DNA from: a virus
Lineage: Duplodnaviria; Caudoviricetes
Length of the DNA: 62,947 nucleotides
IMG/VR virus record: IMGVR_UViG_3300030406_004002
Coordinates: 1-62,947 of that record
Strand: one strand, 5' to 3'
Shown piece by piece: positions 2,065 through 27,566 of this stretch. Numbering within the stretch: the stretch's first letter is position 1; each line of letters starts with the position of its first letter. Under the pieces are notes generated by a model. The model made no database searches and was not told where the DNA came from. It saw only the letters and a program-made list of their open reading frames with translations. Position numbers and translations under genes: made by a program.

Positions 2065-2243
2065 AGAAGAAGAAAGATTTCAAACCACATATGATGTATG
2101 ACCCAAAAACTGGAAAGGGCATACAAGCTAAAACATATGAGAAACATCTTGAGTTAAAGAAGAAAGGGTTTGTTCATGATAAACCCCAAAAATCTTTTAC
2201 TGAAGCTGTTGAATCTAGGCTTAAAAAGAAAAGCGGATATTAA
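2061..2243 (+). CDS. Small basic hypothetical protein (FKPHMMYDPKTG motif)
   Basis: 60-aa ORF, ATGA overlap with the upstream gene. Confidence 0.65.
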   Translation: MKKKKDFKPHMMYDPKTGKGIQAKTYEKHLELKKKGFVHDKPQKSFTEAVESRLKKKSGY

Positions 2244-2244
2244 A

Positions 2245-2436
2245 TTAGTCTTCCACTATATCAAGACCTATACAAATTTTAGGGGGTAGTGGTTGTACTT
2301 GGGTTTCAAGATTAACCCTGACCGCTGGATCTGTAAAAGGAATTGGTAAACCTACTTTAGCGTCTGTGGTGTTACATGAAACGCTTGAAGCTGCAATTAA
2401 AAGAAGTCCTGCAAATGCTATAATTTTCTTTTTCAT
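2245..2436 (-). CDS. Small lipoprotein, antisense to the head module
   Basis: MKKK, a hydrophobic stretch and a lipobox-like SVSC; stop codon abuts the stop of the + strand gene. Confidence 0.65.
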   Translation of the reverse strand: MKKKIIAFAGLLLIAASSVSCNTTDAKVGLPIPFTDPAVRVNLETQVQPLPPKICIGLDIVED

Positions 2437-2599
2437 GGGTAACTATACCCTTATTTCAAGAAAAGCAATACTGATAACGTCATAATTATCAACATTATAA
2501 AAACCCATATAGGTATTTCATCTATAGGTAGTTTCATTGAGTAAGGTACTTACAAAATCCCCATTTGCATAAATATATTAATAAGGGTAAATTTAGTGA

Positions 2600-2757
2600 G
2601 TCATACGAAACGGTTGCTCTAGCCATTAAATAGTTCAGTTTTTTATGACGATGTAAACGAATTTTGTAAGGTTGCTCTAGCCTTAAATAGTTCTAGTAAG
2701 CAAGATTCACTTAACTTTGAAACTAGATCGCTTTACCGACCTAATAGGGAGCGGTCT
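2600..2757 (+). ncRNA. Structured 5' leader of the major capsid gene: two copies of a conserved motif, each closed by a stem, plus a third hairpin
   Basis: Core GGTTGCTCTAGCC(A)TTAAATAGTTC at 2612 and 2670; closing stems 2600-2611/2638-2649 and 2659-2667/2700-2708; hairpin AGATCGCTT/GGAGCGGTCT at about 2725-2757. Confidence 0.6.
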
Positions 2758-2793
2758 GCACTTACTTAACTTAACAATTAGAAATTAAATAAC

Positions 2794-4113
2794 ATGGCAT
2801 TTGCACCTCCAGGTACATTAACTACCGATGCAGCAGCAGCGGTAGATGTAGTATTGACTCAAGAGGCTAACAGAATTGGCTCCGATATACATAAGGCGAC
2901 TCTTCATACTAGTCCTTGGATCGACTTAATTAAACAAACAACCTTTCCAGAAGGAATGGGTTATCAGTTGAACACGCTCGTTTATGACCGTGCTCTTCCA
3001 TTGTCACCAGTAAACAAAGACCTTAGTGAGACAGGAACTTCTGTTGGAGTTTCTTGGTCAGCTTTAGGAACCACAGAAGCCTCTGGCTCAAATGGTTTTA
3101 CAGGCGGTCAGCAAGATCAAACTAATGGTATGGGATCTGGTAAAGCTAACGTTAACGTGATTGACTTCACAAAGACTCTTAAGAACTATTCTCTTGAGAG
3201 AGCTGTTGTTGAATCTCCACGTATTAATGTTGAAGATCTTCGTTATGCAGCTCATCGTACTGAGCAGCTTCGTGCAATCATGGACCTCCTTAAAGAGTCT
3301 GTCCGTAATTCATGGGAAGAGCGTTACCGTGATGAGTACGCTAAACTTTGCGACAACGTCGTTATCTGTAAAGCTTCTGGTACTGCACCAGCTACTGGTA
3401 AAGAAGGAAGCACTACTCCAGATTCTGCTGGAGACGTAGACGCTGATAACAACGATTCAGCAGAGTTGATTGCTGCTAACATCTCAAACAAAGTTCTTGA
3501 TGATCTATACTTCAAGCTTGTAAGAGCAGGAGCAGGTTTCAATGCGTACGGCCGTGAAAATGGTCGTCCAGTATTCTCACTTGTTTGCTCATCTGAAGCT
3601 TCTTATCAGATCATGACTGAGAGTGAGTCCATTAAGGATGACATTCGTTACAATAACTCAAGAGTATCAGAGCTCATTGCACCACTTGGTGTAGAGAAGA
3701 GCTTTAGAGGTTATTACCATCTTGTTGATGACCTTGCTCCACGTTATAGTGACACTGTTGACGGATCTGATAAGCTTGTACGTGTACAGCCTTATATTCA
3801 CAACACATCAACAGACAAGGTTGAAATCAACCCTGATTATGATACTGCTCCTATTGAGGAAGCCTTTATCCTTGTTGATAACGTGATGGAGTCATTGATC
3901 CCAGCACCTATTACAGGAGCAAATGGATTAACATTTGATCCTGTGAACTACAAAGGTGAGTTCAAGTGGACAAACATACCTGATCAGACACTTAACCCTG
4001 ATGGTACAATTGGTTTCTTCAGAGGCATCATGGCTTCTGCTTCTAAGCCGATTAAGACTAACTTCGGTTATTCTATCTTGTTCAGACGTACGTCTACAAC
4101 ACTTGCTGCTTAA
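2794..4113 (+). CDS. Major capsid protein (putative)
   Basis: 439 aa; downstream of portal and scaffold; codon usage typical of a highly expressed gene; followed by a strong terminator. Confidence 0.8.
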   Translation: MAFAPPGTLTTDAAAAVDVVLTQEANRIGSDIHKATLHTSPWIDLIKQTTFPEGMGYQLNTLVYDRALPLSPVNKDLSETGTSVGVSWSALGTTEASGSNGFTGGQQDQTNGMGSGKANVNVIDFTKTLKNYSLERAVVESPRINVEDLRYAAHRTEQLRAIMDLLKESVRNSWEERYRDEYAKLCDNVVICKASGTAPATGKEGSTTPDSAGDVDADNNDSAELIAANISNKVLDDLYFKLVRAGAGFNAYGRENGRPVFSLVCSSEASYQIMTESESIKDDIRYNNSRVSELIAPLGVEKSFRGYYHLVDDLAPRYSDTVDGSDKLVRVQPYIHNTSTDKVEINPDYDTAPIEEAFILVDNVMESLIPAPITGANGLTFDPVNYKGEFKWTNIPDQTLNPDGTIGFFRGIMASASKPIKTNFGYSILFRRTSTTLAA

Positions 4114-4130
4114 TTAGCATATATCATAAC

Positions 4131-4179
4131 AATAATCCCCGATCCTCTTGAAAAAGGAGGGGATCGGGGTTATTTTTTT
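4131..4179 (+). terminator. Rho-independent terminator after MCP
   Basis: CCCCGATCCTCTT...GAGGGGATCGGGG stem followed by TTATTTTTTT. Confidence 0.85.
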
Positions 4180-9447: not shown

Positions 9448-9906
9448 ATGGCTAACATACAAATCAAAAGAGGACAACAAACTCAAGTTTCAATTAAGTT
9501 TAAGCCTGACGGTATTTCTGCTACAAGAAACTTTTATACTGACGATGCTCAATATACGGCTTCTTTAGTTTTAAGAAAGAAGACAGGTAGTTCCGTTTCA
9601 GGTGAGAAAATAGATACTTTAATTAGTTTAACACCAGCTTCTGATGATCCAGATGCTAGCCCACCTGTAATTCAAAGCACTCATGGGAGAATTAGATTCC
9701 CTCAATTAGGAGCAGATAACAGGACGGATGGGACTGAAGATAATGCTAACATTATTTTAAGGTGGGAGACCGCAGATGCTGTAGCCCTTCCTAATGAAGA
9801 TATTACCATTGTTGGTGATTTAAAAATTACAGACACAGATACTAACCCTGACGAGGTTTTACATTCACTACGACTTACTTTTGATATAGTACCAGAAATT
9901 ATCTAA
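9448..9906 (+). CDS. Structural protein, BppU N-terminal-like
   Basis: IQIKRGQ...GDLKITD pattern; TAATG-coupled to the fibre gene. Confidence 0.45.
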   Translation: MANIQIKRGQQTQVSIKFKPDGISATRNFYTDDAQYTASLVLRKKTGSSVSGEKIDTLISLTPASDDPDASPPVIQSTHGRIRFPQLGADNRTDGTEDNANIILRWETADAVALPNEDITIVGDLKITDTDTNPDEVLHSLRLTFDIVPEII

Positions 9907-12900
9907 TGGCCAATGATACAGCTACTGTTACACAGACAGTTAATACGGTTACTGTCGATTCTACTTCCCAAAATAGCTTAGAGCTAAGTTCTACTTCGGG
10001 GAGCTCGATTACTTTAACTGAGAGTCCCTCAAGTTCGACTACTGTTTCAATAACTCCATCATCATCGAGTTTAAAAATAGATAGTGTTTTTGCTCCAAAG
10101 ATTAGCCCTGTTTTTACAGGAACTCCTATAGCTCCCACTGCTTCTCCTGGTACTAATAGTACTCAGATAGCAACAACGGCTTATGTTGATAGTGCTGTAA
10201 CTTTAGAGAATACGTTGGGAGAAATGAATGATGTCAATGTGACATCTCTTTCTGACAATGAAATACTTCAGTATGATACAGCAAGTTCTAAATGGATTAA
10301 TCAAACTTTAGCCGAAGCAGATATTGCTTCAGCAGCTACACTTAGTTCACATACAGGGAGTACTAGTAACCCACATAATGTTACCGCAGCTCAAGTTAAC
10401 TTAGGTAATGTTACGAATGAGTCTAAGGCTACAATGTTTACAAGTCCTGTATTTACAGGCAACCCAACAGCCCCAACTCAACCATTAGGGAATGATAGCG
10501 TTAGTATTGCTACAACAGCTTTCGTTGACAATGCCATAAACGCATTGATAGCAGCAGCCCCTGATACTTTAGACACTCTCAATGAAATAGCAGAAGCTCT
10601 TAATGACGACGCAGACTTTCATCAAACGATTACAGATTTAGCTAACACTAAGCTCCCCCTCGCAGGAGGGACGATGACTGGTAACTTAAATCTTGGTGAT
10701 GATGTTAAGCTGCAACTAGGTGGGGGTAATGATCTTCAGATCTTCCATGATCAGTCAGATAGCATAATCAAGGATGCAGGTACTGGAAATCTTGAGTTAC
10801 ATGCTACAAATCTGGTTTTTCGTAATCATGCTGACTCTGCTCAATACGCATCATTTATCAATGGTGGAGCTGTTTCCCTCTACCATAATAACGGCTTAAA
10901 GTTTCAGACGGCTGCTGGGGGGATTGATATTACTGGAAACCTTACAGTAGGTGACAGTCACTTTATAGGGGATGACTCTTTTGATAACTTAGCTCTAATT
11001 TCTTCGTCAGGAGAAAATGTAGTAGTTGCTGCTGCTAATGATATCTATCTGAATACAGACGCTTCAGGTGGAGGAACAGGAACCAATAGAGTTCTTATTA
11101 ATGAGAGTGGGACTAGTATATCATCAGGCACACTAAAATTATTAGACGGAACAGCAAGTAGCCCTTCGTTGACTTTCACTAGTGGAACTAATACAGGAAT
11201 TTATTGGAGCAACTATACAACTTCTCCACAAAAAGATCAGTTAAACCTTTCTGTAGATGGAAATACAAAGTTCAAAGCAAATGAAGCAGGTATATGGTCA
11301 GTAAGTGGCAACATATATCTTGCTAATGGTTATCAATTTAGAACTTTCCAAGAGTGGTTAGCTACAACAGGTGGGACAGGATACGGGTTTAAGTTTAGGA
11401 ATACAGCGGATGCTGTTGACTCTATGACAATATCTTCAGCAGGTAATGTGGTTGCTGCTGGAACTATTACAGGTACAAGTTTCCATCAAAGCGATCAACT
11501 CGATAGCACTTTTTATAGTGCGACATTTGATGAAAATGTAGATATAAATGGATATTTAGAAGTTGCTGGTAAAGGTGAGTTTTTAGGAGGCACATTAAAC
11601 GTACATACAGCAGGAAATATTAATTACATATCCTCTCAGGATGCTTCTAAAGATCTTCAGATAAGAAATACAGGAGCGAATAAGGATATTGTAATTAAAA
11701 CAAAAGATTCTTCAGGAGAGAATGAAACTATTAGATTAAGAGGATCAGTAAATCATATAGTAGCAAGTGGTAACATAGAGGCACGATTTGGCACAAACTC
11801 TAGAACTTTTAATCTGTATGAAACATATAGTGATAGTTCTAACTATGAGAGAACATCTTTTAATCATAGTGGTGGGTACTTTAATTTAAGCACACAAGAT
11901 CTTGGTACAGGAACAGCAAGTGGTATAAAGTTTAAAACTGACGATTTAACGGCACTAAGTATAGAAGCTAATGGTCTTGTTACAGTTCTTAGCAGGAACT
12001 CTGCATCAAGCACTAATATATTAAGCGTAGGTGGTTCTAGTAATGGATACATGAGTGTCCGACATATTGAAGGTAAGGCATCAAATTCAAATGCTTATGG
12101 CCCACTCTACATAAACTACCTATCCAACAACAATGTTTTTATAGCCTCTGGAGGAGGTAAAGTAGGCATTGGAACTACAACACCTGCAAGAAAATTAGAG
12201 GTTTCTGAAGGATCATCTTCTATAGTAGCTCAATTCAAAAGCACTTCTGGAACTAGTGCATTTATCACTCTTGCAAACACGACCGCAACAGCGGATCAGA
12301 TAAGAGTTGGGTCGATTGGAAATGATTTAGTTTTATCTACTAATTACGCAGAGAGGATGCGTATTCTTTCTGATGGCAAAGTAGGTATTGGTACTACAAA
12401 CCCTGCTGAATTACTCCATGTGGAGGGTAGCAATGCAACTATTAATGTTCGAGAAAGCGGTGCTGCTACTGTTAAAATGCGAGCAGGATCTGTTGGTAGA
12501 ATAGGAACATATTCAGATAATGATTTCTCTATTGTTAGCAATAGCACGGATCGAGTTCGTATTAAAAGTGATGGTAAGGTTGGCATTGGAACAACTTCTG
12601 TAAATACTGGCATTGGCTTACAGGTGGCTAATGGGCATTTGTATGTTACTAGTGGAGAAGTAAAAGCTGATAATATCAATGCAGGGTATTTCAGTTCGAC
12701 TAGAAATCTAGAATTGCAAGGTGGGTCTGCTGCTGGTGTTAAATTAATGTCAGGTGCGACTACTGTTTTGCAGACTAAATCTGATGGAAAAGTAGGGATA
12801 GGAACTACATCGCCAGACCACACTCTAAGAGTTAACGGAGATGCAAGACTAGGCAATCTACATATAAAAACATCAGATTTTGGGCAAGGCGGTACAGGGA

Positions 12901-15900
12901 AGACTATTTATGCAGACGGAGCAGGTTCAGGAGTTTTAGGTTTTATCTCTAGTACTGCTTTTGATTTTTCCAATGGAGCAACTTCTCGATTACGTATAGA
13001 TAGTTCAGGTAACGTAGGTATAGGAACTACAAGCCCCTCCTACAAGTTAGAGATCGATGGTGGTGATTTTCTTGTTAACACAACAAATGGTGGGTATGTG
13101 CAAGTCGATGAGTCAGATAACTCTTTAAAGCTTTCTGATAATGTTAAGATAAAAGCAGGTACGGGTAATGATCTTTCTTTTTATCATAATTCTTCAAATA
13201 ATATAAGCTTTATAGAGAACAGTCATGCTAATGGTTTACGAATAAAGTCAGATGAGCTGCTAATATTTGCTCATAATGGATCTACATTAAGAGCATCATT
13301 TGATACTGCCGTAAAGCTCCTGTACAACGATGCGTACAAGTTCGAGACAACTGCTGATGGGGCAAAGGTGATTGGGACTTTAGGCATTGGTGATTATGCT
13401 ATGATGAAGTCAACGGCTCAGTATATGGGCATGATTGGTTTCAATAGAAATGGAAACACTGGGGCTATTTATAATAATTCTTATGGAGCCTTTCAGCTTC
13501 AGAATAACAACGGAGTCTTTGAGTTTCAGTGCTATAACTCTTCAGGTGCTGCTCAAGCAATACATAAGTTCACAAGTGATGGTAGGGTAGGTATAAACAC
13601 AGCACCTCATACAAACCAACAATTACACATTGTTGCATCGTCTACAGATACAACAGGACTAGAGTTTTCAGCTTCACAACATTCAAACGAAACTAGAATT
13701 CTTTCTTACGATAGAGCAGTAGGAGGAGGATATAGACCATTAAGACTTCAATCATCTCATTTAAAAGTTGAGATTGCAGGTGTACAAAAATTTGCTGTTG
13801 ATACAAGTGGTAACACAACTCTTGCTGGCAACTTAACTGTCGGGGGCGACCTAACCATCAACGGCACAACGACAACTCTTAATGCAGAAGAGTTAGTAAT
13901 TGAGGATAAGAACATTGTTATAGGCAATGTACCTAGCCCGTCTAGCCCATCTGACACAACCGCTGATGGTGGTGGTATTACTCTCAAAGGTGCTAGTGAT
14001 TATACAATCAACTGGACTAATTCAACTAACTCATGGCACTTTAACCAAGGGATTACAGTTGGGGAGAATGATACAGGATATGATGTAAAGTTTTATGGAG
14101 CGACATCAAATAGATATTTACACTGGAATCAAGCAGAGGACAGGTTAAACCTTAGAGACAATACAAAGTTCTCAATAGGTAATTCAAATGATCTACAGCT
14201 AGAGTTCAATGGCACACATAGCTACATCAAAAATAATGTTGGTGGTAGTTTATATATCCAAACGGCTAATACTATCCAACTAGAAAACTCTTCTGGTCAG
14301 GATATGTTAACTGCTGCGAGTGGTGGTGCAGTAAAATTATTTCATGGGGGTAACTCAACAGCAAAGTTTGAGACTACAACTGCTGGGGCAACTGTCACAG
14401 GTAAGTTGGGTATTGGTGTTACAAGCCCATCAACACCTTTACATGTGAAAGGTAATGTAAGGGCAGAGGCTTCTGGAAGTACAGCATTTGCTGACCTCAA
14501 GAGTTCTCAGATATATGCTTCAGGAACTTATGACCTTATAGTAGGCACAAATAATCCTTTATTTTTTAGAACAAACGATACCAGAAGGATGACCATCTTA
14601 GGTGATGGTAAGGTAGGAATAGGTACTACTAACCCACTTCAAGAGCTACACCTTTCATCACCCTCTCCTGTTATAAGGTTGCAGGATTCAGATGGCACAA
14701 ATCAGTTTACTGAAATTGAACAAGCTGGTCAGTCTTTGTATATCAGTTTAAGAAATAACTCTCAAAACGGACATCTTTTTATTCTAGGTAAAAACGGAAC
14801 AGGGACCGACACGGTGTTCATGAAGATTGCCTCAGATGGCAAGGTAGGTTTAGGAACCCAAACACCTGCAAGAGAACTTAGTGTTGTAAGTCCTACTTCA
14901 AACGCAGTCTTTCAGTTAAGTAACTCAACAGCAGGAGAGTCAGCCGATAGTGGTTTAGAGATTTTTGCATCTGGTGTTGATACAGGAATTGTAAATAGAG
15001 AAAATGGATATCTCCGTTTTGATACTAATAATACTGAACGAGCTAGGTTTTTATCAAGTGGGCAATTTATTGTCGGAGGAACTGACTACTTATATTCAGG
15101 AACAGATTTAACTGTTGGTAATACTAGTGACTCACAAAATGGTTTAAACATTGTTACGTCATCGTCTGGAAACGGATATGTTTTATTTGGAGATGGGGCA
15201 GCAGCAGCTGCTTATGTTGGTCAGATTAGGTATAGCCACACAGATAACTTCATGTCTTTCAATACCAATGGGAGTGAAAGACTAAGGATTAATTCTGAAG
15301 GATGTTTAGGTATTAATACAACTAATCCACTATCTGGAGCAAAACTAGATGTTGCTGGCAAAACTAGAATCTATCAGAACGAGTTTCAAATAACTTCAAG
15401 TGCTGCATATACCACACACTTTAACTACCAAAATGGGGGTAATAACTATATCTCACAAGCTAATGGAGGAGGCACTTTCTTCAGGAATAACGGTGGGACT
15501 TTAATGTTTTTAAATAGTGCAGGAGATTTCGGTGTTGATTCTGACACTTTGTATGTCGATGCATCAACTGATAGAGTAGGTATAGGAACAAATAGCCCTG
15601 CTGCTCCATTATCTTTAGTTGGAGTAAATGGTGGTAATTGGAATGATGGATTAATAATAGATGATCCTTCAGGATGGGCAGCGACTGTATATAAGAGGAA
15701 TAATAGTCCTAAAATGTTTACAGGTCTTTATTCTGGTAATGACAACTACATCTGGATGTCAACAGGGTACAGTAACTCTGGAACTACCATAACTGCACCT
15801 AGAGCGGATGCAGTCCTGATGGCAAGACCAGGTACGGATGATCTTCAAATATATTTAGATACACACTTTGGAGGTAAAGTAGGAATAGGAAACGACAACC

Positions 15901-18900
15901 CCGACGAAAAATTAGACGTTGCAGGAAACGCTGTATTAAAGAATGGCACAACTTCGACATCATTGACGTTATACGAAACTTATACGGATACGTCTAATTT
16001 TGAAAAAACTTTACTCGATCATTCTGGTGGTTATTTTGAGATTGATACGGGAGCTTTAGGATCAGGGAGCCTTAGTGGAATTAAACTTTCTGTAGGTAGT
16101 TATACTAAACTACAAATAGAACCAGAAGGTCATGTCCTAATAAATGGTGCTGATGATAATGGTAACAAGGCAGACTTCTCTGTAGGGGTTGGTACTAGTC
16201 CAAGAGTTTCGTGGCATAACCAACAAGTTCAGATAGGTGGGCTTGACATGAACTACAATGGAAACATTTCTCATACGGGCAGTGTTTTTGGTATGACATC
16301 TTGGTCTAGTTCTATTGAGTTTAGGTGCAATTCATCCTCTGGAGCATCCGCTCGTGATATTTACTTCATGCCTTTCAATGGGACTTCTACTTCAGAAGCC
16401 ATGCGTATTAAGGGTAGTGGTAATGTTGGTATAGCGACTGACGCTCCTGCTACGAAATTACAAATTGATGAGTACACAGTAGGATCTAATGGAAACCAGT
16501 CTGTAACTGGCACTGCGTCTATATTTACGAATAGCGGTAGTGATGGTTTATATCTAGGTGTTAAGAATGCCAGTCACCCAAATAGGGGGTATGCCTTCAA
16601 AGTCACTAGCAATGGCGTTAACTCTGATTTCACAATTAGAGAACATGGTTTAACTGGTGACAGGTTTACGATCCAGACTGGTGGTAGTGTAGGGATAGCA
16701 ACTACTAGTCCTTCTAGTCAGTTCTATAATAATCTGGTTGTTGGTAATAATGACTCTGGTGAAAAAGGAATAACTATTAGATCTAACGCTTCTAATGGAG
16801 GGCATTTGGCTTTCTCTGATACTGATGCTGCAAATGCAGGAAGGTACGCAGGGCGGATATCTTATTTCCACGATACCAATTCTATGCGGTTTTATACTAC
16901 TGCTGGTGATTTCGCAATGGCGATTGATTCATCGCAGAGGGTAGGTATAGGTGTTACAACACCAGATCACAGACTTCATGTAGATGGGACTATTGCAATC
17001 AAGGGGGGTGAACTTGCTGACACAGCTCGCATACACTTCCAAGCATCTGATGAGAGTAATAGATTTACTCTTGAGTCTGACTTTAATTCTACTACAACAA
17101 CTGATTTATTAGGGTTCAGGTCTACAACTGCTGATAATATTCTTGTTCTAAAAGGTAATGGAAATGTTGGCATAGGAACAACTTCAAACGCCCAAAAGCT
17201 ACACATCAAAGGGGATGCTTTACGTATAGAAGAAAGTGTTGGCAATAGACACCTTGATATCATTCCAGCAGTAAGTGGATCAAGCCATAGGTTCACTAGT
17301 ACAACTACAGGTAGTGGATATAACTTTGAGAATAGCAATGGGACTATTGCAACTTTCACTGAAACTCTATCGCAGTTTAATCAAAACGTAAAAATTCAAA
17401 CGTCTAATTTACAGTTAAACTCTGGAAATTATGTGCAGTGGGGAGGGAGTCATTATCGTGTAGAGGGAAGTAATGGAAATTGGTTAAAGTTTTTCACAGC
17501 TAATGTTGAGAGGTTACGTATTACAGCAGCAGGAGTTACCCAAGTAAAAAACTATCTTGATTTAGAACTGTTAAATGACGCAGATTCTACGTCACCTATA
17601 TTGGTTGTTGATGGTACTAGAGTTAAGAAAGCAACTAATCTTCACGTTTATAAAGATACTAACGATAATAGTTACTTGGCAGAAACAGGCTCTGGTGACC
17701 TGTACATAAAAGGTGGTAATGACATCATTATCCAAGACGCAGTAGGCAACACTTTAATTCACGCAAATCAATCTGACAGTGTTGAGTTGCACTATGGAGG
17801 TGTTAAGAGACTAGAAACTAAAACTTATGGGGCAGAACTTACCCATCCTTCTGGATGGGCAGAACTACATTTAAATGGCCCAAGTGGGGGTGAAATAAAA
17901 CTTCAAAAAGCAGGAGCTACACATCTTGATATATATGCATCTGATGCAGGTAGTACTAGTTCTGTTATCAAAGCACAGTCACACTTGAGGTTATCCTCAA
18001 ACAATAGTGTTGCTGCTAATAGATCAATTTACTTAAAGAGCGACGGCTTTGTTGGTATTGGAAATGATGCCCCTTCTCATAGATTACATGTTACAGGAGA
18101 CGCTCGTATTGAAGGTAACTTAACAATCAACGGAACTACTACGATTGTAGATACTGACGTATCTACGACTGAGCAGTTATTGATAACTAACGATGGGACT
18201 GGTCCAGCTATTGTAGCTAATCAAACAGGAACCCAACCTGTTATTGATTTCCAAGATGACAGTACTTCTGTTTTCTACATAGAGAATGGTGGTAATGTTG
18301 GGATTGGGACTGGCTCTAACATAGGGGCTAACGCACATTTAGAAATTTTAAAGGATAACCCTCAAATAGTTTTAACGGACTCTAACGAAGGTACAAATGA
18401 TAAGACTTTTAGATTCATAAATATAAATGAATCATTGAGGATAACCGCAAGAACAGACGGCAATACTGCAAACACGGCTGGTGGGGACATCTTGACCCTT
18501 AAAAGGGATGGTCATGTAGTCATTGGAGGCACAGAACCTACAGTTACAGGAGGTACAGCTAAACTAACAATTAATGTCGGAGCTACTACAAACGTACCTG
18601 TTACCATCGCTAACGGGACTACGGATCAGGTATATTTAAGACGATATACTTCTGGAGGTAAGTATCAAATTCAAACAGTAAATGGGTCATCTAATGAAGG
18701 AGTGTTGTCACTACAGAGTTATGGCGGTGGTGTAGGCATAGGAACAACTGACTCCAGTGGTTTCAAACTTGATGTCCGAACAGCTACTGGAGGTGCAATA
18801 GCAAGATTTAAAGATTCAGATAGTTCTCACGATGGTATAAGAATAGAAGGAGATACGAATGGAGGGATCATTAGTAATGCTAGTGGTGTAAGTAAAGAGG

Positions 18901-21900
18901 CTATTTATTTCCAAAACAGCACTAATGCAATACGTCTATACACCAATGGCAATGAGAGAATACGTATAGCTTCTGATGGCAAGGTGGGAATAGGCACAAC
19001 TTCTCCTGCAATGCCTGTTGAGATTGTTACTGGTAGTGGGGCTACTGTTGATTTACCTAATCAGACAACTGGAGGTATTGCATTTGCGAACAATTCTGGT
19101 TCTAACAATGTGCCAACCATAGTTGGTAAATCTAATAGTAGCATGGGTCTTGAGATTATTGGAGCTGCCAATAATAGTAATATTCATGGAGACTTAGTAT
19201 TTAATTGTAGAGAGAACAATAACTCTACTTTTGCTGATACCGATCAAGCAGGTTTTAAATTCCAACACTACACTACTGACTTAGTCACTATTTACAGAAG
19301 TGGTAAAGTGGGTATTGGTACTAGCAGTCCTGCCGAAACTTTGCATGTTTCAGGTTCAAGTAGCGAGGGTACTGGAAAAGTAAAGATTGATAATGTACCT
19401 ACTGAAAGTACTGAAAAGACTGCTCTTGTTTATAGTAGTGGTAAAATAGTCAGTCAAAGAGAATTAGGTGATAATGCTTTTACTAGCCACCCTTATCTAA
19501 GAACTGATGATACTGGATCGACTCAAACAGTTAATGACCCTGTAACCTTTACAGATTTACTTAAGATTAATGATACAGGAAACGCCATTTTAGATTTAAA
19601 CACGACTGGCACTGGATCTAATACTACAATTAGATTTAGGAACACTGATAGCAATAAAGCGACTATTGGTTATGATGGAGGTAATAGTGGGCTAATCTTA
19701 ACCACTGGAGGATTCACAGCAGGTAATGGTATCTTTATTGATGATAATCAGAAGGTAGGAATAGGCACTAAAACGCCAAATGCTTTATTAAATGTGCAAG
19801 GCGATTCAAACCCAACAATTTTAATAAATGCTGTAACGGGTAATTCAGTAAATAGTGGTAAGTTGGCGTTTGCAGAAACAGACGGTGGTGCTCATCAGGC
19901 GTTTATTAAATATGACGGTTCAGCCAACAGGCTAGAAATCGGAACCGCTGACGTTGCACAGGCTTTAGTGGTTAACAGAACTGACGGCAAGGTAGGCATT
20001 GGAACATCAACCCCATCATCGTTATTAAATTTAAGTGATGCCTCAAACAACCTTTCTCATCAGATAGGATTCTCCTATGTAAGCGGAGGAACTGAGACGG
20101 ACGCATTTACTATTGGCAGAAATAGTTCTACAGGAAACCTAGAGTTTCATTCTGATATAAACAATCATGGTTTCGAGTTCAAGCACAACGCTGCTGGTAC
20201 TCAAGAGTTTAACATTCTAAACTTGAAGGTAGGCATCGGTACTGATGCCCCTAACAGAAACCTTAACGTTGTAGGGCAAATAGGTATAGATAACTCAGCA
20301 TCATCTCCGACTGGAGGTATGTTGATTACTCCTGATGGTAATTCTAATAAGATATATTCAAGGACAGCTAATAATGTTGCTACAGCCCACCCATTAGATT
20401 TCTTTGCAGGTAGTACCCATACTGTAAGAATTGAATCAGATGGGGATGTTGACCTCCAAACAGGTGACTTATACTTTAGCACGAATGGTAAGGGACTTCA
20501 TTTTGATGGTGTTACAGGCTGGGATTGGAAGATCGTATCTGAAGACTCAGGGTCTAGTAATGTACCTCTACTTTTTAAGTCTCAAGAAGGAGGCCCTAAC
20601 CCTTCAGCTCCTTCTGAGAAGTTTAGAATTAACTCAGCAGGGGATGCTATCTTTAAAGATAAACTTACTGTTGAGGTTATACCTTCAGTTCAGCAAGAAG
20701 AAAACACTGTTCTTGTGGTAGAAGGTTCTGATGGCGGTTTATCTTGCATAAAGAAAAGAGAGTTAAATACTGTAAATATTCCTGACTACACAAGTAATAC
20801 CAATGGTATTATAAAGATTGGATCTGATGATGATCTTAATTTGTATCATACTTCTGGCAATAACTTTGTTTCCGCTGCTACAGGAGGCAATTTATTCATT
20901 CAAGGTAATACTGTTGCTCTTAGGTCAGTCTCTCAAAAGAACATGGTTGTTGGTAATGTTAACAGTCATGTAAAACTTTACTACGATAACTCAGAGCGTC
21001 TGTCTACTACAACAGGTGGTATCACTGTCACTGGAAAGATGACCTCTGACACAATTACCACAGCGTTAAGTTTGGAGATGTTTGCATCTAGTGGACATAA
21101 TTACATCTCCTCACAATCTTCAGGTAGTAATTTATACATAAGAAACACAGGAGGAGGTCAGATTCTTATAAGACCTAAAACGGGCGAAGACGGGATAAAA
21201 CTCATACCTGATGGTGCAGTTCAGCTTTATCACGACAACGCAAAGAAGTTCGAGACTACCTCAACAGGAATCCATGTCACTGCTAGTGACCCTATACTAA
21301 AAATAACAGACACAAGTGGTTCGGATAATGGAGCTACATTATGGCTACAAGAAAATGATAATTATGGTGCTAAAGTAAAGTACGATAGTAATTCTAATAC
21401 ATTTTTCAAAGTAAGCACCGTTGATGGAGGAACTGAAACTGACCGCTTTTCTATAAAACGGACTGGTGAAACTGGTATAGGCACTACAAGCCCTGAACAT
21501 GATCTCCATGTTGCTGGAGAAACTCTTTTAGATGCTCCAAATGGGAGTACACATTCTTTAAGGTTAGGTAGAGCAGATAATGCAAACAAATGGTTTTTTA
21601 ACCATGCTGGTAATGATTTAAGAATTTATAACGCTGCTGGATCTGGGTATGACATTATGCTTGGGGTAAACTCAGGTGGAGCTGCTCAAGATAACAAAGT
21701 AGGTATAGGCACAGCAAGCCCTGCCGAAAAGCTAGATGTCAATGGGTATGTAAGAACCAAAAACTCTAAGTATAAAAAATATACTAGTTTGACAGGATCA
21801 TCGAATGATTGGTTCCCTATATATCAGGTCAATGATCATAAGGGTGGGCAGGTTACATTTAATGTAAATACTTATGCTCATAGCTCATGTACTTTTGTTG

Positions 21901-23672
21901 TAAGTGAAGGATATGGTCCTTCAGGACAAAGTGGCAACCCTGCACACATAAATGTTCTAAACTACCTATATCATGCTAATGGGGGTTATGCGAACATCAC
22001 AGGCATAAGAGTCAATCAGATTGGAATGGTTGAAATCAAGCTGACATTCAGCAGTGGACCAACTGTAAATGTTGCAGTTCGTATTGAAAGCAGTGAAGAA
22101 CTTCAGAATAATTTAGCTAGTTCGTTAGCGACAAGTACATCTACTGAATCAATTAGAGATTCAGTAAACTTGAGCAATAAGTATGCTAGGTTTAAGAATT
22201 TGACTCTAGGGGATGATGGATCAGCATCATCACCAGCTCTGAATTTTGGATCAAGTGGCAGTACAGGTCTTTATTATACTTCATCTCAGTTAAATTTTGC
22301 TCTTCATGGGTCAACTAGAATGTACCTAACTTCTGCTGGAATTTTCAGTAGTAGTAATGTTTATAGTGGCACAACAGGACAGTTCCGAAACTTTGGCGGA
22401 ACATGGCAAGCTACTACAGGTACAGGCACTAATGGATTTACGTTTAAAAATACAAACGAGGCTCAAACAGCAGCTACGATAACTTCAAAAGGAACCTTAA
22501 CTCTTAATGGTGGGACAACATCAACAAAGCTTTATTTATATGAAACGTATACTGATGCCTCAAATTATGAGAGAACAACCTTTGATTTCAGTGGTGGTTA
22601 TTTTAATATAGATACTAATAAATCAGGCACAGGACACACCGCTAGCGGAATAAAGTTGGGGGCAAATGGTTATGCGTACCTTCAGCTTGAGCCAGAAGGT
22701 AATGTCCTAATCAATGGTGCTAATGATAATAGTAACAGGGCAGACTTTGCTGTAGGTACTCTTGGTAATCCAAGAGTTTCATGGCATGGCAATCAAGTTC
22801 AGATAGGTGGGACCGACATGAACTACAATGGAAATATCTCATACAATAGTGCTGTTTTCAGGATGCAGAGTTGGCAGAGTAATATTTCTTTTGAGTTAAA
22901 AGGAACTTCTGGAACAGCTAATAAAGACATTATATTCAGACCTTTTAATGGCACTGCGGATACTGAAGCCATGCGTATCAAGGGCAGTGGTGATGTTTGT
23001 ATTGGAACTACCGCTACAATGTCATCAGCTAACGCTAGAAGGTTAGTTGTTGGAGATGGGGCAGGTACAGAAGGAATAACTATTTATTCAGGAAACAATT
23101 CTTCAGGATGGCTTGCATTTGCAGATGGTACATCAGGTGACCAAAGCTATAGAGGAATTGTGCAGTATAGCCATGCTAATGACGCTATGTCGTTTCATAC
23201 TCAAGGAACAACTGAGAGGATGCGACTTAATTCAACTGGATTAGGTATAGGAACTACCAATCCAGCCGAGAAGCTTCACGTTGAAGGAAGAATCAGAATT
23301 GGGACAACCCCCGAAATAGTTTCGCACGATAATATCACTTTAGTTATCGATCAAAATGCGAATAGCGGTTCTAATTATTTAAATATTAAAGGGGGTACAG
23401 TTGAACTTGTAAGGGTGAAGCAAAACGGGAATGTAGGAATAGGAACTACCACTCCAGATGCAAAGCTACAGGTCGAGGGATTAATAAAACAACAAGTAAT
23501 TACAGTAAGTCAATTACCTACTCCAAGTTCTACTATGCAGGGCGTTAGAGCTTTTGTAAGTGATTCTTCGATGACAGCTTCAGGTAACTTTGGAGCCACT
23601 ATACAAGGCTATGGTGGTGGGTCTAATACTGTACCTGTTTGGTGCGATGGAAACTACTGGTATATTGGGTAA
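9906..23672 (+). CDS. Giant modular tail fibre/adhesin, 4588 aa
   Basis: N-terminal fibre repeats (SPVFTGTPIAPT...QIATTAYV; APDTLDTLNEIAEALNDD), about 30 G(K/N)VGIGTTxP-type junctions, ends VPVWCDGNYWYIG. Confidence 0.9.
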   Translation: MANDTATVTQTVNTVTVDSTSQNSLELSSTSGSSITLTESPSSSTTVSITPSSSSLKIDSVFAPKISPVFTGTPIAPTASPGTNSTQIATTAYVDSAVTLENTLGEMNDVNVTSLSDNEILQYDTASSKWINQTLAEADIASAATLSSHTGSTSNPHNVTAAQVNLGNVTNESKATMFTSPVFTGNPTAPTQPLGNDSVSIATTAFVDNAINALIAAAPDTLDTLNEIAEALNDDADFHQTITDLANTKLPLAGGTMTGNLNLGDDVKLQLGGGNDLQIFHDQSDSIIKDAGTGNLELHATNLVFRNHADSAQYASFINGGAVSLYHNNGLKFQTAAGGIDITGNLTVGDSHFIGDDSFDNLALISSSGENVVVAAANDIYLNTDASGGGTGTNRVLINESGTSISSGTLKLLDGTASSPSLTFTSGTNTGIYWSNYTTSPQKDQLNLSVDGNTKFKANEAGIWSVSGNIYLANGYQFRTFQEWLATTGGTGYGFKFRNTADAVDSMTISSAGNVVAAGTITGTSFHQSDQLDSTFYSATFDENVDINGYLEVAGKGEFLGGTLNVHTAGNINYISSQDASKDLQIRNTGANKDIVIKTKDSSGENETIRLRGSVNHIVASGNIEARFGTNSRTFNLYETYSDSSNYERTSFNHSGGYFNLSTQDLGTGTASGIKFKTDDLTALSIEANGLVTVLSRNSASSTNILSVGGSSNGYMSVRHIEGKASNSNAYGPLYINYLSNNNVFIASGGGKVGIGTTTPARKLEVSEGSSSIVAQFKSTSGTSAFITLANTTATADQIRVGSIGNDLVLSTNYAERMRILSDGKVGIGTTNPAELLHVEGSNATINVRESGAATVKMRAGSVGRIGTYSDNDFSIVSNSTDRVRIKSDGKVGIGTTSVNTGIGLQVANGHLYVTSGEVKADNINAGYFSSTRNLELQGGSAAGVKLMSGATTVLQTKSDGKVGIGTTSPDHTLRVNGDARLGNLHIKTSDFGQGGTGKTIYADGAGSGVLGFISSTAFDFSNGATSRLRIDSSGNVGIGTTSPSYKLEIDGGDFLVNTTNGGYVQVDESDNSLKLSDNVKIKAGTGNDLSFYHNSSNNISFIENSHANGLRIKSDELLIFAHNGSTLRASFDTAVKLLYNDAYKFETTADGAKVIGTLGIGDYAMMKSTAQYMGMIGFNRNGNTGAIYNNSYGAFQLQNNNGVFEFQCYNSSGAAQAIHKFTSDGRVGINTAPHTNQQLHIVASSTDTTGLEFSASQHSNETRILSYDRAVGGGYRPLRLQSSHLKVEIAGVQKFAVDTSGNTTLAGNLTVGGDLTINGTTTTLNAEELVIEDKNIVIGNVPSPSSPSDTTADGGGITLKGASDYTINWTNSTNSWHFNQGITVGENDTGYDVKFYGATSNRYLHWNQAEDRLNLRDNTKFSIGNSNDLQLEFNGTHSYIKNNVGGSLYIQTANTIQLENSSGQDMLTAASGGAVKLFHGGNSTAKFETTTAGATVTGKLGIGVTSPSTPLHVKGNVRAEASGSTAFADLKSSQIYASGTYDLIVGTNNPLFFRTNDTRRMTILGDGKVGIGTTNPLQELHLSSPSPVIRLQDSDGTNQFTEIEQAGQSLYISLRNNSQNGHLFILGKNGTGTDTVFMKIASDGKVGLGTQTPARELSVVSPTSNAVFQLSNSTAGESADSGLEIFASGVDTGIVNRENGYLRFDTNNTERARFLSSGQFIVGGTDYLYSGTDLTVGNTSDSQNGLNIVTSSSGNGYVLFGDGAAAAAYVGQIRYSHTDNFMSFNTNGSERLRINSEGCLGINTTNPLSGAKLDVAGKTRIYQNEFQITSSAAYTTHFNYQNGGNNYISQANGGGTFFRNNGGTLMFLNSAGDFGVDSDTLYVDASTDRVGIGTNSPAAPLSLVGVNGGNWNDGLIIDDPSGWAATVYKRNNSPKMFTGLYSGNDNYIWMSTGYSNSGTTITAPRADAVLMARPGTDDLQIYLDTHFGGKVGIGNDNPDEKLDVAGNAVLKNGTTSTSLTLYETYTDTSNFEKTLLDHSGGYFEIDTGALGSGSLSGIKLSVGSYTKLQIEPEGHVLINGADDNGNKADFSVGVGTSPRVSWHNQQVQIGGLDMNYNGNISHTGSVFGMTSWSSSIEFRCNSSSGASARDIYFMPFNGTSTSEAMRIKGSGNVGIATDAPATKLQIDEYTVGSNGNQSVTGTASIFTNSGSDGLYLGVKNASHPNRGYAFKVTSNGVNSDFTIREHGLTGDRFTIQTGGSVGIATTSPSSQFYNNLVVGNNDSGEKGITIRSNASNGGHLAFSDTDAANAGRYAGRISYFHDTNSMRFYTTAGDFAMAIDSSQRVGIGVTTPDHRLHVDGTIAIKGGELADTARIHFQASDESNRFTLESDFNSTTTTDLLGFRSTTADNILVLKGNGNVGIGTTSNAQKLHIKGDALRIEESVGNRHLDIIPAVSGSSHRFTSTTTGSGYNFENSNGTIATFTETLSQFNQNVKIQTSNLQLNSGNYVQWGGSHYRVEGSNGNWLKFFTANVERLRITAAGVTQVKNYLDLELLNDADSTSPILVVDGTRVKKATNLHVYKDTNDNSYLAETGSGDLYIKGGNDIIIQDAVGNTLIHANQSDSVELHYGGVKRLETKTYGAELTHPSGWAELHLNGPSGGEIKLQKAGATHLDIYASDAGSTSSVIKAQSHLRLSSNNSVAANRSIYLKSDGFVGIGNDAPSHRLHVTGDARIEGNLTINGTTTIVDTDVSTTEQLLITNDGTGPAIVANQTGTQPVIDFQDDSTSVFYIENGGNVGIGTGSNIGANAHLEILKDNPQIVLTDSNEGTNDKTFRFININESLRITARTDGNTANTAGGDILTLKRDGHVVIGGTEPTVTGGTAKLTINVGATTNVPVTIANGTTDQVYLRRYTSGGKYQIQTVNGSSNEGVLSLQSYGGGVGIGTTDSSGFKLDVRTATGGAIARFKDSDSSHDGIRIEGDTNGGIISNASGVSKEAIYFQNSTNAIRLYTNGNERIRIASDGKVGIGTTSPAMPVEIVTGSGATVDLPNQTTGGIAFANNSGSNNVPTIVGKSNSSMGLEIIGAANNSNIHGDLVFNCRENNNSTFADTDQAGFKFQHYTTDLVTIYRSGKVGIGTSSPAETLHVSGSSSEGTGKVKIDNVPTESTEKTALVYSSGKIVSQRELGDNAFTSHPYLRTDDTGSTQTVNDPVTFTDLLKINDTGNAILDLNTTGTGSNTTIRFRNTDSNKATIGYDGGNSGLILTTGGFTAGNGIFIDDNQKVGIGTKTPNALLNVQGDSNPTILINAVTGNSVNSGKLAFAETDGGAHQAFIKYDGSANRLEIGTADVAQALVVNRTDGKVGIGTSTPSSLLNLSDASNNLSHQIGFSYVSGGTETDAFTIGRNSSTGNLEFHSDINNHGFEFKHNAAGTQEFNILNLKVGIGTDAPNRNLNVVGQIGIDNSASSPTGGMLITPDGNSNKIYSRTANNVATAHPLDFFAGSTHTVRIESDGDVDLQTGDLYFSTNGKGLHFDGVTGWDWKIVSEDSGSSNVPLLFKSQEGGPNPSAPSEKFRINSAGDAIFKDKLTVEVIPSVQQEENTVLVVEGSDGGLSCIKKRELNTVNIPDYTSNTNGIIKIGSDDDLNLYHTSGNNFVSAATGGNLFIQGNTVALRSVSQKNMVVGNVNSHVKLYYDNSERLSTTTGGITVTGKMTSDTITTALSLEMFASSGHNYISSQSSGSNLYIRNTGGGQILIRPKTGEDGIKLIPDGAVQLYHDNAKKFETTSTGIHVTASDPILKITDTSGSDNGATLWLQENDNYGAKVKYDSNSNTFFKVSTVDGGTETDRFSIKRTGETGIGTTSPEHDLHVAGETLLDAPNGSTHSLRLGRADNANKWFFNHAGNDLRIYNAAGSGYDIMLGVNSGGAAQDNKVGIGTASPAEKLDVNGYVRTKNSKYKKYTSLTGSSNDWFPIYQVNDHKGGQVTFNVNTYAHSSCTFVVSEGYGPSGQSGNPAHINVLNYLYHANGGYANITGIRVNQIGMVEIKLTFSSGPTVNVAVRIESSEELQNNLASSLATSTSTESIRDSVNLSNKYARFKNLTLGDDGSASSPALNFGSSGSTGLYYTSSQLNFALHGSTRMYLTSAGIFSSSNVYSGTTGQFRNFGGTWQATTGTGTNGFTFKNTNEAQTAATITSKGTLTLNGGTTSTKLYLYETYTDASNYERTTFDFSGGYFNIDTNKSGTGHTASGIKLGANGYAYLQLEPEGNVLINGANDNSNRADFAVGTLGNPRVSWHGNQVQIGGTDMNYNGNISYNSAVFRMQSWQSNISFELKGTSGTANKDIIFRPFNGTADTEAMRIKGSGDVCIGTTATMSSANARRLVVGDGAGTEGITIYSGNNSSGWLAFADGTSGDQSYRGIVQYSHANDAMSFHTQGTTERMRLNSTGLGIGTTNPAEKLHVEGRIRIGTTPEIVSHDNITLVIDQNANSGSNYLNIKGGTVELVRVKQNGNVGIGTTTPDAKLQVEGLIKQQVITVSQLPTPSSTMQGVRAFVSDSSMTASGNFGATIQGYGGGSNTVPVWCDGNYWYIG

Positions 23673-26183: not shown

Positions 26184-26738
26184 ATGATAGCACTTTGCGT
26201 AGGGCACAGTAGACCAAATGATTCAGGAGCTTCTTCAGTAACGGGCGTTACTGAGTGGGATTACAATTCTGAGCTTGCTGAGATGGTTGCTGATAAGCTC
26301 AAAGAAAAAACTAAAGTTTATAGCACTTATAAAGGTAAAGGGTATGTCAGTGCTATGAGGTGGTTAGCTCGAAAGCTTGATGAAGATCGAGTAGACACAG
26401 CCATTGAGTTTCATTTTAACGCTGCTACACCTAAAGCTACAGGCCATGAGTGGTTGTATTGGCATTCTAGTGACCAAGGAAGGCTCTTATCAAGAGCTCT
26501 AAGAGATTCATTTGAAGATTCTTTTCCTCAATTGGCCAGTAGGGGGATTAAGCCTAGGAATAAAGGTAGTCGAGGAGCTATGTTTTTAAGAACGACAAGT
26601 ATGCCAGCTTGCATCATAGAGCCTTTCTTTGGGACAAATAAAGAAGATTGGGATCTAGCAGTAAATCACAAGCCTGGAATAGCTGAAGCTATATCAAGTG
26701 GATTAAAACTCTATAAAGATATTTCAGGAAGGTGGTAA
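26184..26738 (+). CDS. N-acetylmuramoyl-L-alanine amidase (Amidase_3), endolysin
   Basis: Zn ligands and catalytic residues: CVGH, TEW, EFHFNA, IIEPFF. Confidence 0.9.
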   Translation: MIALCVGHSRPNDSGASSVTGVTEWDYNSELAEMVADKLKEKTKVYSTYKGKGYVSAMRWLARKLDEDRVDTAIEFHFNAATPKATGHEWLYWHSSDQGRLLSRALRDSFEDSFPQLASRGIKPRNKGSRGAMFLRTTSMPACIIEPFFGTNKEDWDLAVNHKPGIAEAISSGLKLYKDISGRW

Positions 26739-26739
26739 C

Positions 26740-27039
26740 TTGGAACTTCCAAAAACAATTTCTATTGCTGGCAGAAGAGTAAAGCTTGCCTTAGTCCCCT
26801 TTAATGGTGATAGCCCCGACTATGGATTGTATTTACATGACAAGAAAACCATTGAAATAAATAAAAACCTCAAAGGTAAAGCCCTTATACAGACCATCAG
26901 ACATGAAATGATGGAGGCAAGTTTGCTTTTAAGTGGTGTAGGGTGGCTTGAAAACTACGATCAAGAAGCCGTTGTCCGATGCATGGAAGAAATATTCTTT
27001 CCTGCATGGGAGGCTTTCTTGAAAAAGATAGATCAATGA
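26740..27039 (+). CDS. Small zincin-fold protein with HExxE variant motif
   Basis: YGLY...IEIN...TIRHEMMEA...EAVV pattern. Confidence 0.55.
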   Translation: MELPKTISIAGRRVKLALVPFNGDSPDYGLYLHDKKTIEINKNLKGKALIQTIRHEMMEASLLLSGVGWLENYDQEAVVRCMEEIFFPAWEAFLKKIDQ

Positions 27040-27566
27040 AATCTAAAAAGAAGCAATTTAATACCTCTGATGAGTTTATTAAATTCACTCCCTCTGGCAA
27101 AGATATTTGTTTAGCTCATGAAAGGGCTAAACAAATGGGGGTGCTTCCTAATTCTTACACAAGAGGGTTAGGTAGGATGGCTGGTTGTTTAGGAGAAATA
27201 GCCGTCAATAAATACCTTCCTAGGAGTAAATATGTTGGAGACGTTTCTTACTGTTTTGATTTGATTTACAAAAAGAAAGAAATAGAGATTAAGTCTAAAA
27301 CATGTAGTTCAGTACCTAAACCCGAATATAGTGCTTTTGTTAATTGCAAGAACAACCCCGTACTAAATAATGATGTTTATTTTTTCACTAGGGTTCGCAG
27401 AGATTTAATGCAGGTATGGTTAGTAGGATGGTTACCCACAACTCAGTTACTTAAAAAAGCAAAGTTTGTTAAAAAAGGTGACTCTGATAAAGATGGGTTT
27501 GTATTTAAATCTTCTGGACTACATATACCAATCAAGAAACTTAAATCTCCTAAAGATTTTTTTTAA
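27036..27566 (+). CDS. PD-(D/E)XK restriction-endonuclease-fold protein
   Basis: LGEIAV...FDL...IEIKSK; likely start ATG 27036 (ATGA overlap). Confidence 0.65.
   Translation: MKSKKKQFNTSDEFIKFTPSGKDICLAHERAKQMGVLPNSYTRGLGRMAGCLGEIAVNKYLPRSKYVGDVSYCFDLIYKKKEIEIKSKTCSSVPKPEYSAFVNCKNNPVLNNDVYFFTRVRRDLMQVWLVGWLPTTQLLKKAKFVKKGDSDKDGFVFKSSGLHIPIKKLKSPKDFF

Follow-up and report, generated by a model that had tools for sequence, protein, structure and literature searches.

Two hairpins built on the same RNA motif precede the major capsid protein gene of an uncultured marine N4-like phage, and the region that holds them is best explained as the 5' untranslated leader (~195 nt from a putative start) of a self-contained capsid unit. 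The motif (~47 nt) comprises a variable outer stem (P1), an invariant asymmetric junction (GGUUGCU / UUC(U)A), a short inner stem (P2) and an A/U-rich loop starting with GCC. It is an RNA structure of the sense strand, kept by strong purifying selection, at the head of the capsid unit. As judged from aligned leaders, it is a new structured 5'-UTR RNA family (with a predicted start position) and, as such, a new family within a known kind, the structured phage mRNA leaders.

The window (the whole stretch of DNA analysed, 62,947 bases) contains an intergenic gap of 357 nt (2437-2793) between a minus-strand ORF (2245-2436) and a plus-strand ORF encoding 439 amino acids. The features of the capsid unit were as follows:

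2565-2593, plus strand: putative sigma-70-type promoter (TTGCAT 2565-2570, 17-nt spacer, TAAATT 2588-2593).
2600-2649, plus strand: hairpin 1, motif copy 1, constrained fold (MFE -10.2 kcal/mol, z -1.65); P1 2600-2611/2638-2649, P2 2619-2621/2631-2633, loop 2622-2630; junction 5' strand GGUUGCU 2612-2618, 3' strand UUCA 2634-2637.
2659-2708, plus strand: hairpin 2, motif copy 2, constrained fold (MFE -11.6 kcal/mol, z -1.83); P1 2659-2667/2700-2708, P2 2677-2679/2688-2690, loop 2680-2687; junction 5' strand 2670-2676, 3' strand UUCUA 2691-2695 plus four unpaired bases 2696-2699.
2726-2756, plus strand: hairpin 3, stem 2726-2732/2750-2756 (GAUCGCU/AGCGGUC), apical CC/GG (MFE -13.7 kcal/mol, z -2.64).
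2757-2793, plus strand: translation initiation region, poor in G and unstructured; UUAACUU repeats present, Shine-Dalgarno-like run absent.
2794-4113, plus strand: major capsid protein gene, 439 aa, HK97 fold, N4-like (AF2, Foldseek).
4137-4179, plus strand: intrinsic terminator, stem 4137-4169 (13 bp with 8 G-C pairs), then TTATTTTTTT.

The 439-aa protein had no sequence match in Pfam, PHROG, NCBIfam or PDB. Against cultured phages, tblastn with the protein gave no match, and blastn with the intergenic region gave chance matches only (8-11% coverage). Its designation as the major capsid protein in an earlier reading of the DNA, made from the sequence only, was borne out by AF2 and Foldseek. 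The AF2 model reached a pLDDT of 84.1 with a 101-sequence alignment (50.3 with a shallow alignment). The top Foldseek matches in the PDB were the capsid proteins of DEV, Pan3 and N4 (E 3e-10 to 1e-9, probability 1.00), and the top 10 rows were capsid chains of DEV, Pan3, N4, B2 and Moo19. Language-model look-alikes of the protein carry Phage_capsid_3/4, and its relatives in a profile search fell into 552 clusters. The capsid gene is trailed by seven ORFs, with a 4588-aa ORF beyond them, an order which we take to resemble the N4 layout; the 4588-aa ORF presumably occupies the place that the virion RNA polymerase gene has in N4, downstream of the capsid gene. This giant ORF (9906-23672, plus strand) and a second one (41439-49607, plus strand, 2722 aa) were poorly conserved, with relatives at 22-36% where these were detected.

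The earlier reading had described a core occurring twice, 58 nt apart, each copy enclosed by a stem of different sequence that still pairs. Exact string search confirmed the repeat: the 13-mer GGTTGCTCTAGCC has two copies 58 nt apart, at 2612-2624 and 2670-2682, and no third one in the 62,947 bases of the window, where the sole further match with up to two mismatches was at position 28122. TTAAATAGTTC followed each GGTTGCTCTAGCC copy exactly (at 2626 and 2683), in agreement with the repeat search. Constrained folds likewise upheld the divergent enclosing stems at 2600-2611/2638-2649, with 11 of 12 positions paired (one G-U among them), and at 2659-2667/2700-2708, with 9 bp (two being G-U). The third hairpin described before the capsid start was also present (2726-2756). 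At its place the relatives have stem-loops of differing sequence (by eye), and this structurally conserved part of the leader folded better than shuffles in the relatives, with a mean z of -1.85 (z < -2 in 21/37). Hairpin stability was poorer on the reverse strand (z about -0.9 to -1.0), and the fold of the whole region 2590-2800 gave z -0.30. The folding energies of hairpin 1, hairpin 2 and the whole region are not significant; therefore, the case for more than chance rests on comparative data.

IMG/VR searches for related loci yielded 64 loci (capsid 47-100% identical) and then 80, many of them the same contigs. They collapsed to 90 distinct leaders, two of which were truncated, so that 88 could be evaluated, with capsids 52-100% identical in the first search; these leaders are kin to one another and do not represent independent events. 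One locus (L001) belongs to the same or a near-identical phage. Two copies of the motif were present in 53 of the 88 leaders (52 by covariance model; in L043 the second copy was recognised only by pattern and by eye), a single clear copy accompanied by a 13.8-bit trace in one (L266), and a single longer version in 26 (L059 is doubtful, without P1). The remaining eight had no copy (L016, L017, L019, L020, L022, L023, L025 and L042). The tandem arrangement is thus typical of the clade, but it is not obligatory. The 13-mer core was letter-perfect at only 52-72% capsid identity while the flanks differed almost everywhere, and the spacing between the two copies varied from 52 to 89 nt. Locus searches starting from two distant representatives returned 2 and 0 loci.

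The longer version (long form) reads GGYYNGCU(C/U), P2, an internal loop (AGCC-like versus GAAUA-like), a further stem P3 capped mostly by GNRA loops, and (G/A)UUCUA. The covariance models detect short-form copies well but barely see this one (16.3 bits). The kinship of both forms is argued from three points: they occupy the same position, they have junction strings in common, and the second copy in the L040 clade is intermediate between them (36.8-40.7 bits with the short-form model).

A plain MAFFT alignment of the copies gave no consistent P1 register, and P1 was therefore tested by constrained folding and partner permutation. In 98 distinct short-form copies the cognate P1 strands had a mean energy of -7.28 kcal/mol, versus -2.45 kcal/mol for permuted partners (sd 0.23; 0/1000 permutations reached the cognate value). 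The same test had reached z -14.7 on 47 copies collected earlier, and in 21 long-form copies the cognate energy was -6.00 versus -3.53 (0/1000 permutations). All four Watson-Crick pair types were found at inner P1 positions 1-6 and 8, and three at position 7. RNAalifold on a MAFFT whole-leader alignment paired core 1 with core 2; this fold was rejected (no covariation, misaligned stems).

The earlier reading had proposed a covariance model of homologous capsid upstream regions. Across the copies compared, both P1 and P2 covaried. The model was built from nine copies of one geometry and aligned 60 copies. In the resulting alignment (A5, 47 distinct rows), 88.7% of the cells were paired (62.0% shuffled), there were 151 compensatory cells (47.7 in shuffles) and the covariation score was 0.561 versus 0.160 (0/500 shuffles; slid controls 0.055-0.101), counts that the model fit biases toward structure, a bias from which the permutation test is free. 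Approximately 10% of the paired cells (45 cells) were G-U or U-G. These would be A-C on the opposite strand, so they fit the sense strand only.

P2 is formed in the window by C2619-G2633, U2620-A2632 and A2621-U2631, and by the same pairs in copy 2. Among 64 distinct copies, the closing pair was C-G in 57 and U-A in 5 (GCUC...GUUC versus GCUU...AUUC), the next pair U-A in 53 and C-G in 8, and the third A-U in 49 and G-C in 13. The mini-hairpin GGUU-GCUCU-AGCC, which had been placed inside the core, was compatible only with single changes, whereas the competing P2 has compensatory changes; hence, P2 is favoured over the mini-hairpin. Within the core, G1-G2 may pair with the loop CC (those bases never vary), and stacking of the invariant junction strands GGUUGCU and UUC(U)A is conceivable, with G:C between pyrimidine mismatches.

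Three further elements were observed in the leaders of relatives. Between copies 1 and 2, many short-form leaders (L002, L007, L008, L011, L012, L014, L038, L044, L048, L050 and others; not the window) have, by eye, an optional mini-hairpin with covarying 3-4-bp stems (UGG/CCA, GAG/CUC, GGA/UCC) and the loop GCUNNGNU. Approximately 60-110 nt before the capsid ATG, long-form leaders (L015, L018, L024, L027, L030, L032, L033, L035, L039 and L045) share another conserved element, a GAAGC-like string which, by eye, is complementary to the loop of the next hairpin (GUCGCC-GCUUC-GCGAC); string and hairpin look like an H-type pseudoknot. Seven leaders without the motif (L016, L017, L019, L020, L022, L023 and L025) share another conserved arrangement, a hairpin GACCUGCCAGUAGGUC and a UGCGCUA element, which may be a functional replacement of the motif.

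The motif was closely tied to the capsid gene. A covariance model (R1) matched hairpin 1 at 2603-2646 (34.7 bits, E 7.4e-7) and hairpin 2 at 2661-2706 (44.6 bits, E 1.5e-9); with filters off, a scan of the whole window returned these two copies only, the next best match scoring 12.2 bits. Another 19 relatives and five MAG contigs had exactly two matches each. Ten genomes (IMG/VR completeness 97-100%, 620,691 bases in all) were then fetched and searched. The three short-form genomes had two matches each, both upstream of the capsid gene and none elsewhere; the two long-form genomes had 16-bit matches only (at the capsid leader in L306, elsewhere in L303); and the five motif-less genomes had no match to the model. 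The motif was found on the capsid sense strand only.

An IMG/VR pattern scan returned at least 120 stretches, with 36 strict-motif loci among the matches listed. A capsid homologue lay 90-261 nt downstream in 32 of these 36 listed loci; the other four were two chance-like single matches and two loci ending just after the motif. Many of the at least 120 pattern matches were rejected as coincidences with coding sequence in small contigs. In L066, L068, L070, L072-L075 and many IMG/VR contigs of 4-15 kb, a conserved stretch of approximately 32 nt starts with the first 10 letters of the core; its variation pattern and open frame suggest that it is coding on the other strand. A scan of 185,579 species genomes found the motif in five MAG contigs only (L268-L272, 3-29 kb), all with tandem copies, in bins named Acidimicrobiaceae, Opitutae, Blastopirellula and Verrucomicrobiales. 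These contigs are probably mis-binned phage, and no host is assignable from them. DNA runs labelled as marine metagenomes hold the stretch.

The capsid gene appears to have a transcription unit of its own. The promoter boxes of the window lie below the threshold of a consensus scan and were read from the sequence. In the short-type leaders of relatives, a -35 box (TTGACA/TTGCAT) is conserved 42-50 nt before the first core, and the TTGCAT of the window aligns with it. From these boxes, transcription would start at approximately 2599-2601, the first bases of hairpin 1. The case of a start downstream of the repeats had been raised; the putative start instead precedes both, given the conserved position of the -35 before core 1. 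Contigs from RNA libraries (four runs) came from relatives only and covered parts of the capsid gene plus, in one 156-nt contig, copy 2 of one leader; such contigs cannot show transcript starts or ends. No terminator-like site was found between 2600 and 2793 in the window scan. The last 45 nt before the ATG contained 8% G, versus 21% in the rest of the upstream region (87 leaders), and 2749-2808 in the window folded worse than shuffles (z +1.15). The UUAACUU-type repeats before the capsid ATG, in the window and in relatives, presumably resemble the translational enhancer strings of T7 gene 10. At the 3' end, a -35-like TTGAAA of the next unit sits in the terminator loop, and a strong hairpin followed the capsid stop codon in 23/23 related loci (region MFE -25 to -34 kcal/mol). 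Promoter, structured leader, open ribosome-loading region, gene and terminator together indicate that the capsid gene is its own insulated unit. A terminator loop carrying the -35 of the next unit (TTGAAA/TTGACA) also recurs upstream of the capsid gene in L040, L051, L052 and L015-type loci; an example of this composite in relatives is GGGGG-TTGACA...-CCCCC-TTTTTT.

The motif could not be assigned to a known family, in line with the earlier reading. A scan of 2200-3100 of the window against Rfam 15 (E <= 10) gave only a chance match to a miRNA model at 2481-2556, outside the motif, and nine related loci (E <= 1) gave only two unrelated weak matches. The motif is undescribed in the parts of the literature searched. 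The 2023 IMG/VR catalogue (Comput Struct Biotechnol J, PMC10690425), as far as its accessible text goes, lists 8,495 unnamed candidate structured RNAs mined from IMG/VR, some of them upstream of capsid genes; it shares data source and kind of object with the present motif and may include it unnamed. The cis-regulatory screen described in that text covered the 25 nt next to the start codon, whereas the capsid-leader motif lies at least 86 nt upstream.

How the leader works is a matter of graded likelihood. We tentatively prefer, at slightly less than an even chance, a function in capping the 5' end combined with docking sites for a trans-acting factor that sets the stability or translation of the capsid mRNA or the behaviour of the polymerase. 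Host sigma-70 RNA polymerase would start at approximately 2599-2601, and with that start hairpin 1 would form from the first transcribed bases and cap the 5' end, which might shield the capsid message from decay that depends on the 5' end. The factor would dock at the invariant junction, which the leader presents twice; a phage-encoded RNA-binding protein seems the most likely candidate. The target of this factor could be the completed mRNA or, as with TAR/boxB, the RNA still being transcribed, and the factor would tune stability, translation or late-promoter output for the protein needed in the largest amount. The spacing of 52-89 nt and the relatives with one longer copy suggest that the two hairpins act as independent modules.

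Stabilisers of the ompA type offer a close parallel to the capping part: the capsid hairpin also starts no more than a few bases from the putative 5' end of a message with very high expression, and the unit is bracketed by a strong hairpin after the gene. 5'-terminal stabiliser stem-loops of the ompA 5' UTR type need only a stem, whereas the capsid-leader motif has ~20 invariant junction/loop bases and is duplicated. Several observations speak against capping and docking. A distance of 86-180 nt separates the motif from the start codon, whereas most translational operators lie over it, and ~20 invariant bases in the junction and loop exceed the needs of most protein sites and would equally fit an aptamer or ribozyme. 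The single-sequence folding energies, which are not significant, and the promoter boxes of the window, which fall below the scan threshold, also count against it. So does the search for the partner, which compared the window ORFs across five motif-bearing and five motif-less genomes and gave no convincing RNA binder. The sole clean presence/absence pattern was that of a 195-aa ORF (detectable in 5/5 motif-bearing and 0/5 motif-less genomes), a neighbour of the endolysin and probably a lysis gene; a 168-aa HNH-like ORF had a partial pattern. The lysis cassette (26184-27566, plus strand) consists of an Amidase_3 endolysin (26184-26738), a 99-aa ORF and then this 195-aa ORF, the distribution of which may reflect different hosts.

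A bolder conjecture, which we consider unlikely though worth stating, is that the junction, rather than being a passive protein site, defines a new small functional RNA class specific to N4-like marine phages, either a tether for a late activator (TAR/boxB-like) or a self-contained fold. As a tether, the nascent capsid leader would recruit a late-transcription activator to the polymerase. Like lambda N-boxB/nut and HIV Tat-TAR, the leader has a promoter-proximal hairpin with a covarying stem and fixed bulge/loop bases; TAR starts at +1 and is duplicated in HIV-2. Unlike boxB and TAR, the capsid leader has no boxA, its transcription unit ends at a strong terminator, and the motif shows no sequence similarity to either and no Rfam match. 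No N-like or Tat-like protein was identified. As a self-contained fold, an aptamer, ribozyme or nuclease-blocking structure would sense or resist something in the infected cell.

Endoribonuclease processing, in which host RNase III or a phage nuclease cuts the hairpins (~18-20 pairs) and trims the leader to a stable 5' end, is less probable again. RNase III sites of the T7 early and late mRNAs leave defined, stable 5' ends. The capsid-leader motif appears to share with their hairpins an irregular shape, with an internal loop between helices, the presence of several copies in a genome and a link to mRNA stability. The helix of the motif (P1 with a mean of 9.9 pairs, a possibly stacked junction whose pairs never vary and the three P2 pairs) may approach the two turns or so of such a site, with an internal loop between covarying stems; the element is repeated inside one leader, and stable hairpins stand at the 3' end of the unit too. 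Unlike the T7 sites, the core is invariant across distant relatives and belongs to one gene only. RNase III has little sequence specificity, so processing would leave the invariant 13-mer across diverged phages unexplained.

Considered on its own, a tandem small-molecule aptamer (of the guanidine-II or NAD+-I type) or a small self-cleaving ribozyme is a somewhat poorer candidate than processing. Its attraction lies in the ~20 invariant bases in junction and loop between covarying helices, a typical pattern, in the tandem arrangement and in the GNRA-capped P3 of the long versions; guanidine-II/mini-ykkC and NAD+-I/nadA also consist of two small, similar hairpins whose non-helical bases are conserved, joined by a variable linker. 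Unlike these riboswitches, the leader lacks an expression platform (the hairpins are followed by no terminator, and the start codon lies in an open G-poor region at least 86 nt off) and exists in single-copy versions. No Rfam riboswitch or ribozyme matched the window (E <= 10) or the nine relatives (E <= 1), and a ribozyme would have no evident purpose in cutting one leader twice.

An RNA like HK022 put, in which nascent hairpins bind RNA polymerase and make it pause- or termination-resistant, is improbable. The arrangement recalls put in having two cis-acting, phage-encoded tandem stem-loops directly after a putative host-type promoter, at a fixed distance, and a universally conserved partner, RNA polymerase for example, could account for the invariance. 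Unlike those of put, the capsid-leader hairpins are copies of one motif spaced 52-89 nt apart, and no other late unit in the window has them. The very strong terminator with a new -35 in its loop directly after the capsid gene, and the presence of the 3' hairpin at all 23 related loci examined, argue against read-through; with terminator and promoter boxes after a single gene, the unit looks built to stop.

A trans-acting or packaging RNA released from the leader is very improbable: it has nothing in its favour beyond the structure itself, there is no terminator or conserved 3' end after hairpin 3, and the motif invariably comes joined to the capsid gene, so that the packaging role suggested earlier gained nothing. 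Least probable of all are tandem DNA operators or promoters at which a phage regulator or polymerase would act; an invariant repeat near a promoter in a divergent intergenic region would suit them, but duplex binding leaves the covarying flanks and inner stem, the G-U pairs and the strict strand polarity unexplained, and the motif occurs at no other transcription unit of the window or the ten genomes. The earlier view of an RNA-level element rather than a DNA operator therefore stands, on covarying stems, invariant loops, G-U pairs and restriction to the sense strand.

The capsid protein is the most heavily produced phage protein, and to our knowledge RNA-level control of tailed-phage capsid genes is little documented. 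The motif ranks among the better-supported RNA candidates proposed from sequence only, by virtue of a core that does not vary, two helices that covary, a fixed distance to the promoter, a strict link to one gene and a copy number that stays constant. The motif is the mark of a large clade of uncultured marine N4-like phages and offers a tag by which their sequences can be recognised in metagenomes and mis-binned MAGs. Its ~47 nt provide a handle toward a new RNA-binding regulator or a new RNA fold. Should the tether or the self-contained fold prove true, the leader would be a new RNA-based control point of the capsid in widespread ocean phages.

On the other side of the intergenic gap, the 63-aa ORF (2245-2436, minus strand) diverges from the capsid leader. 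Its N-terminus (MKKKIIAFAGLLLIAASSVSC) is signal-peptide- and lipoprotein-like, it has a promoter-like site of its own (2521-2494), and homologues were detected in only 2/10 related genomes; it may be an inserted accessory gene.
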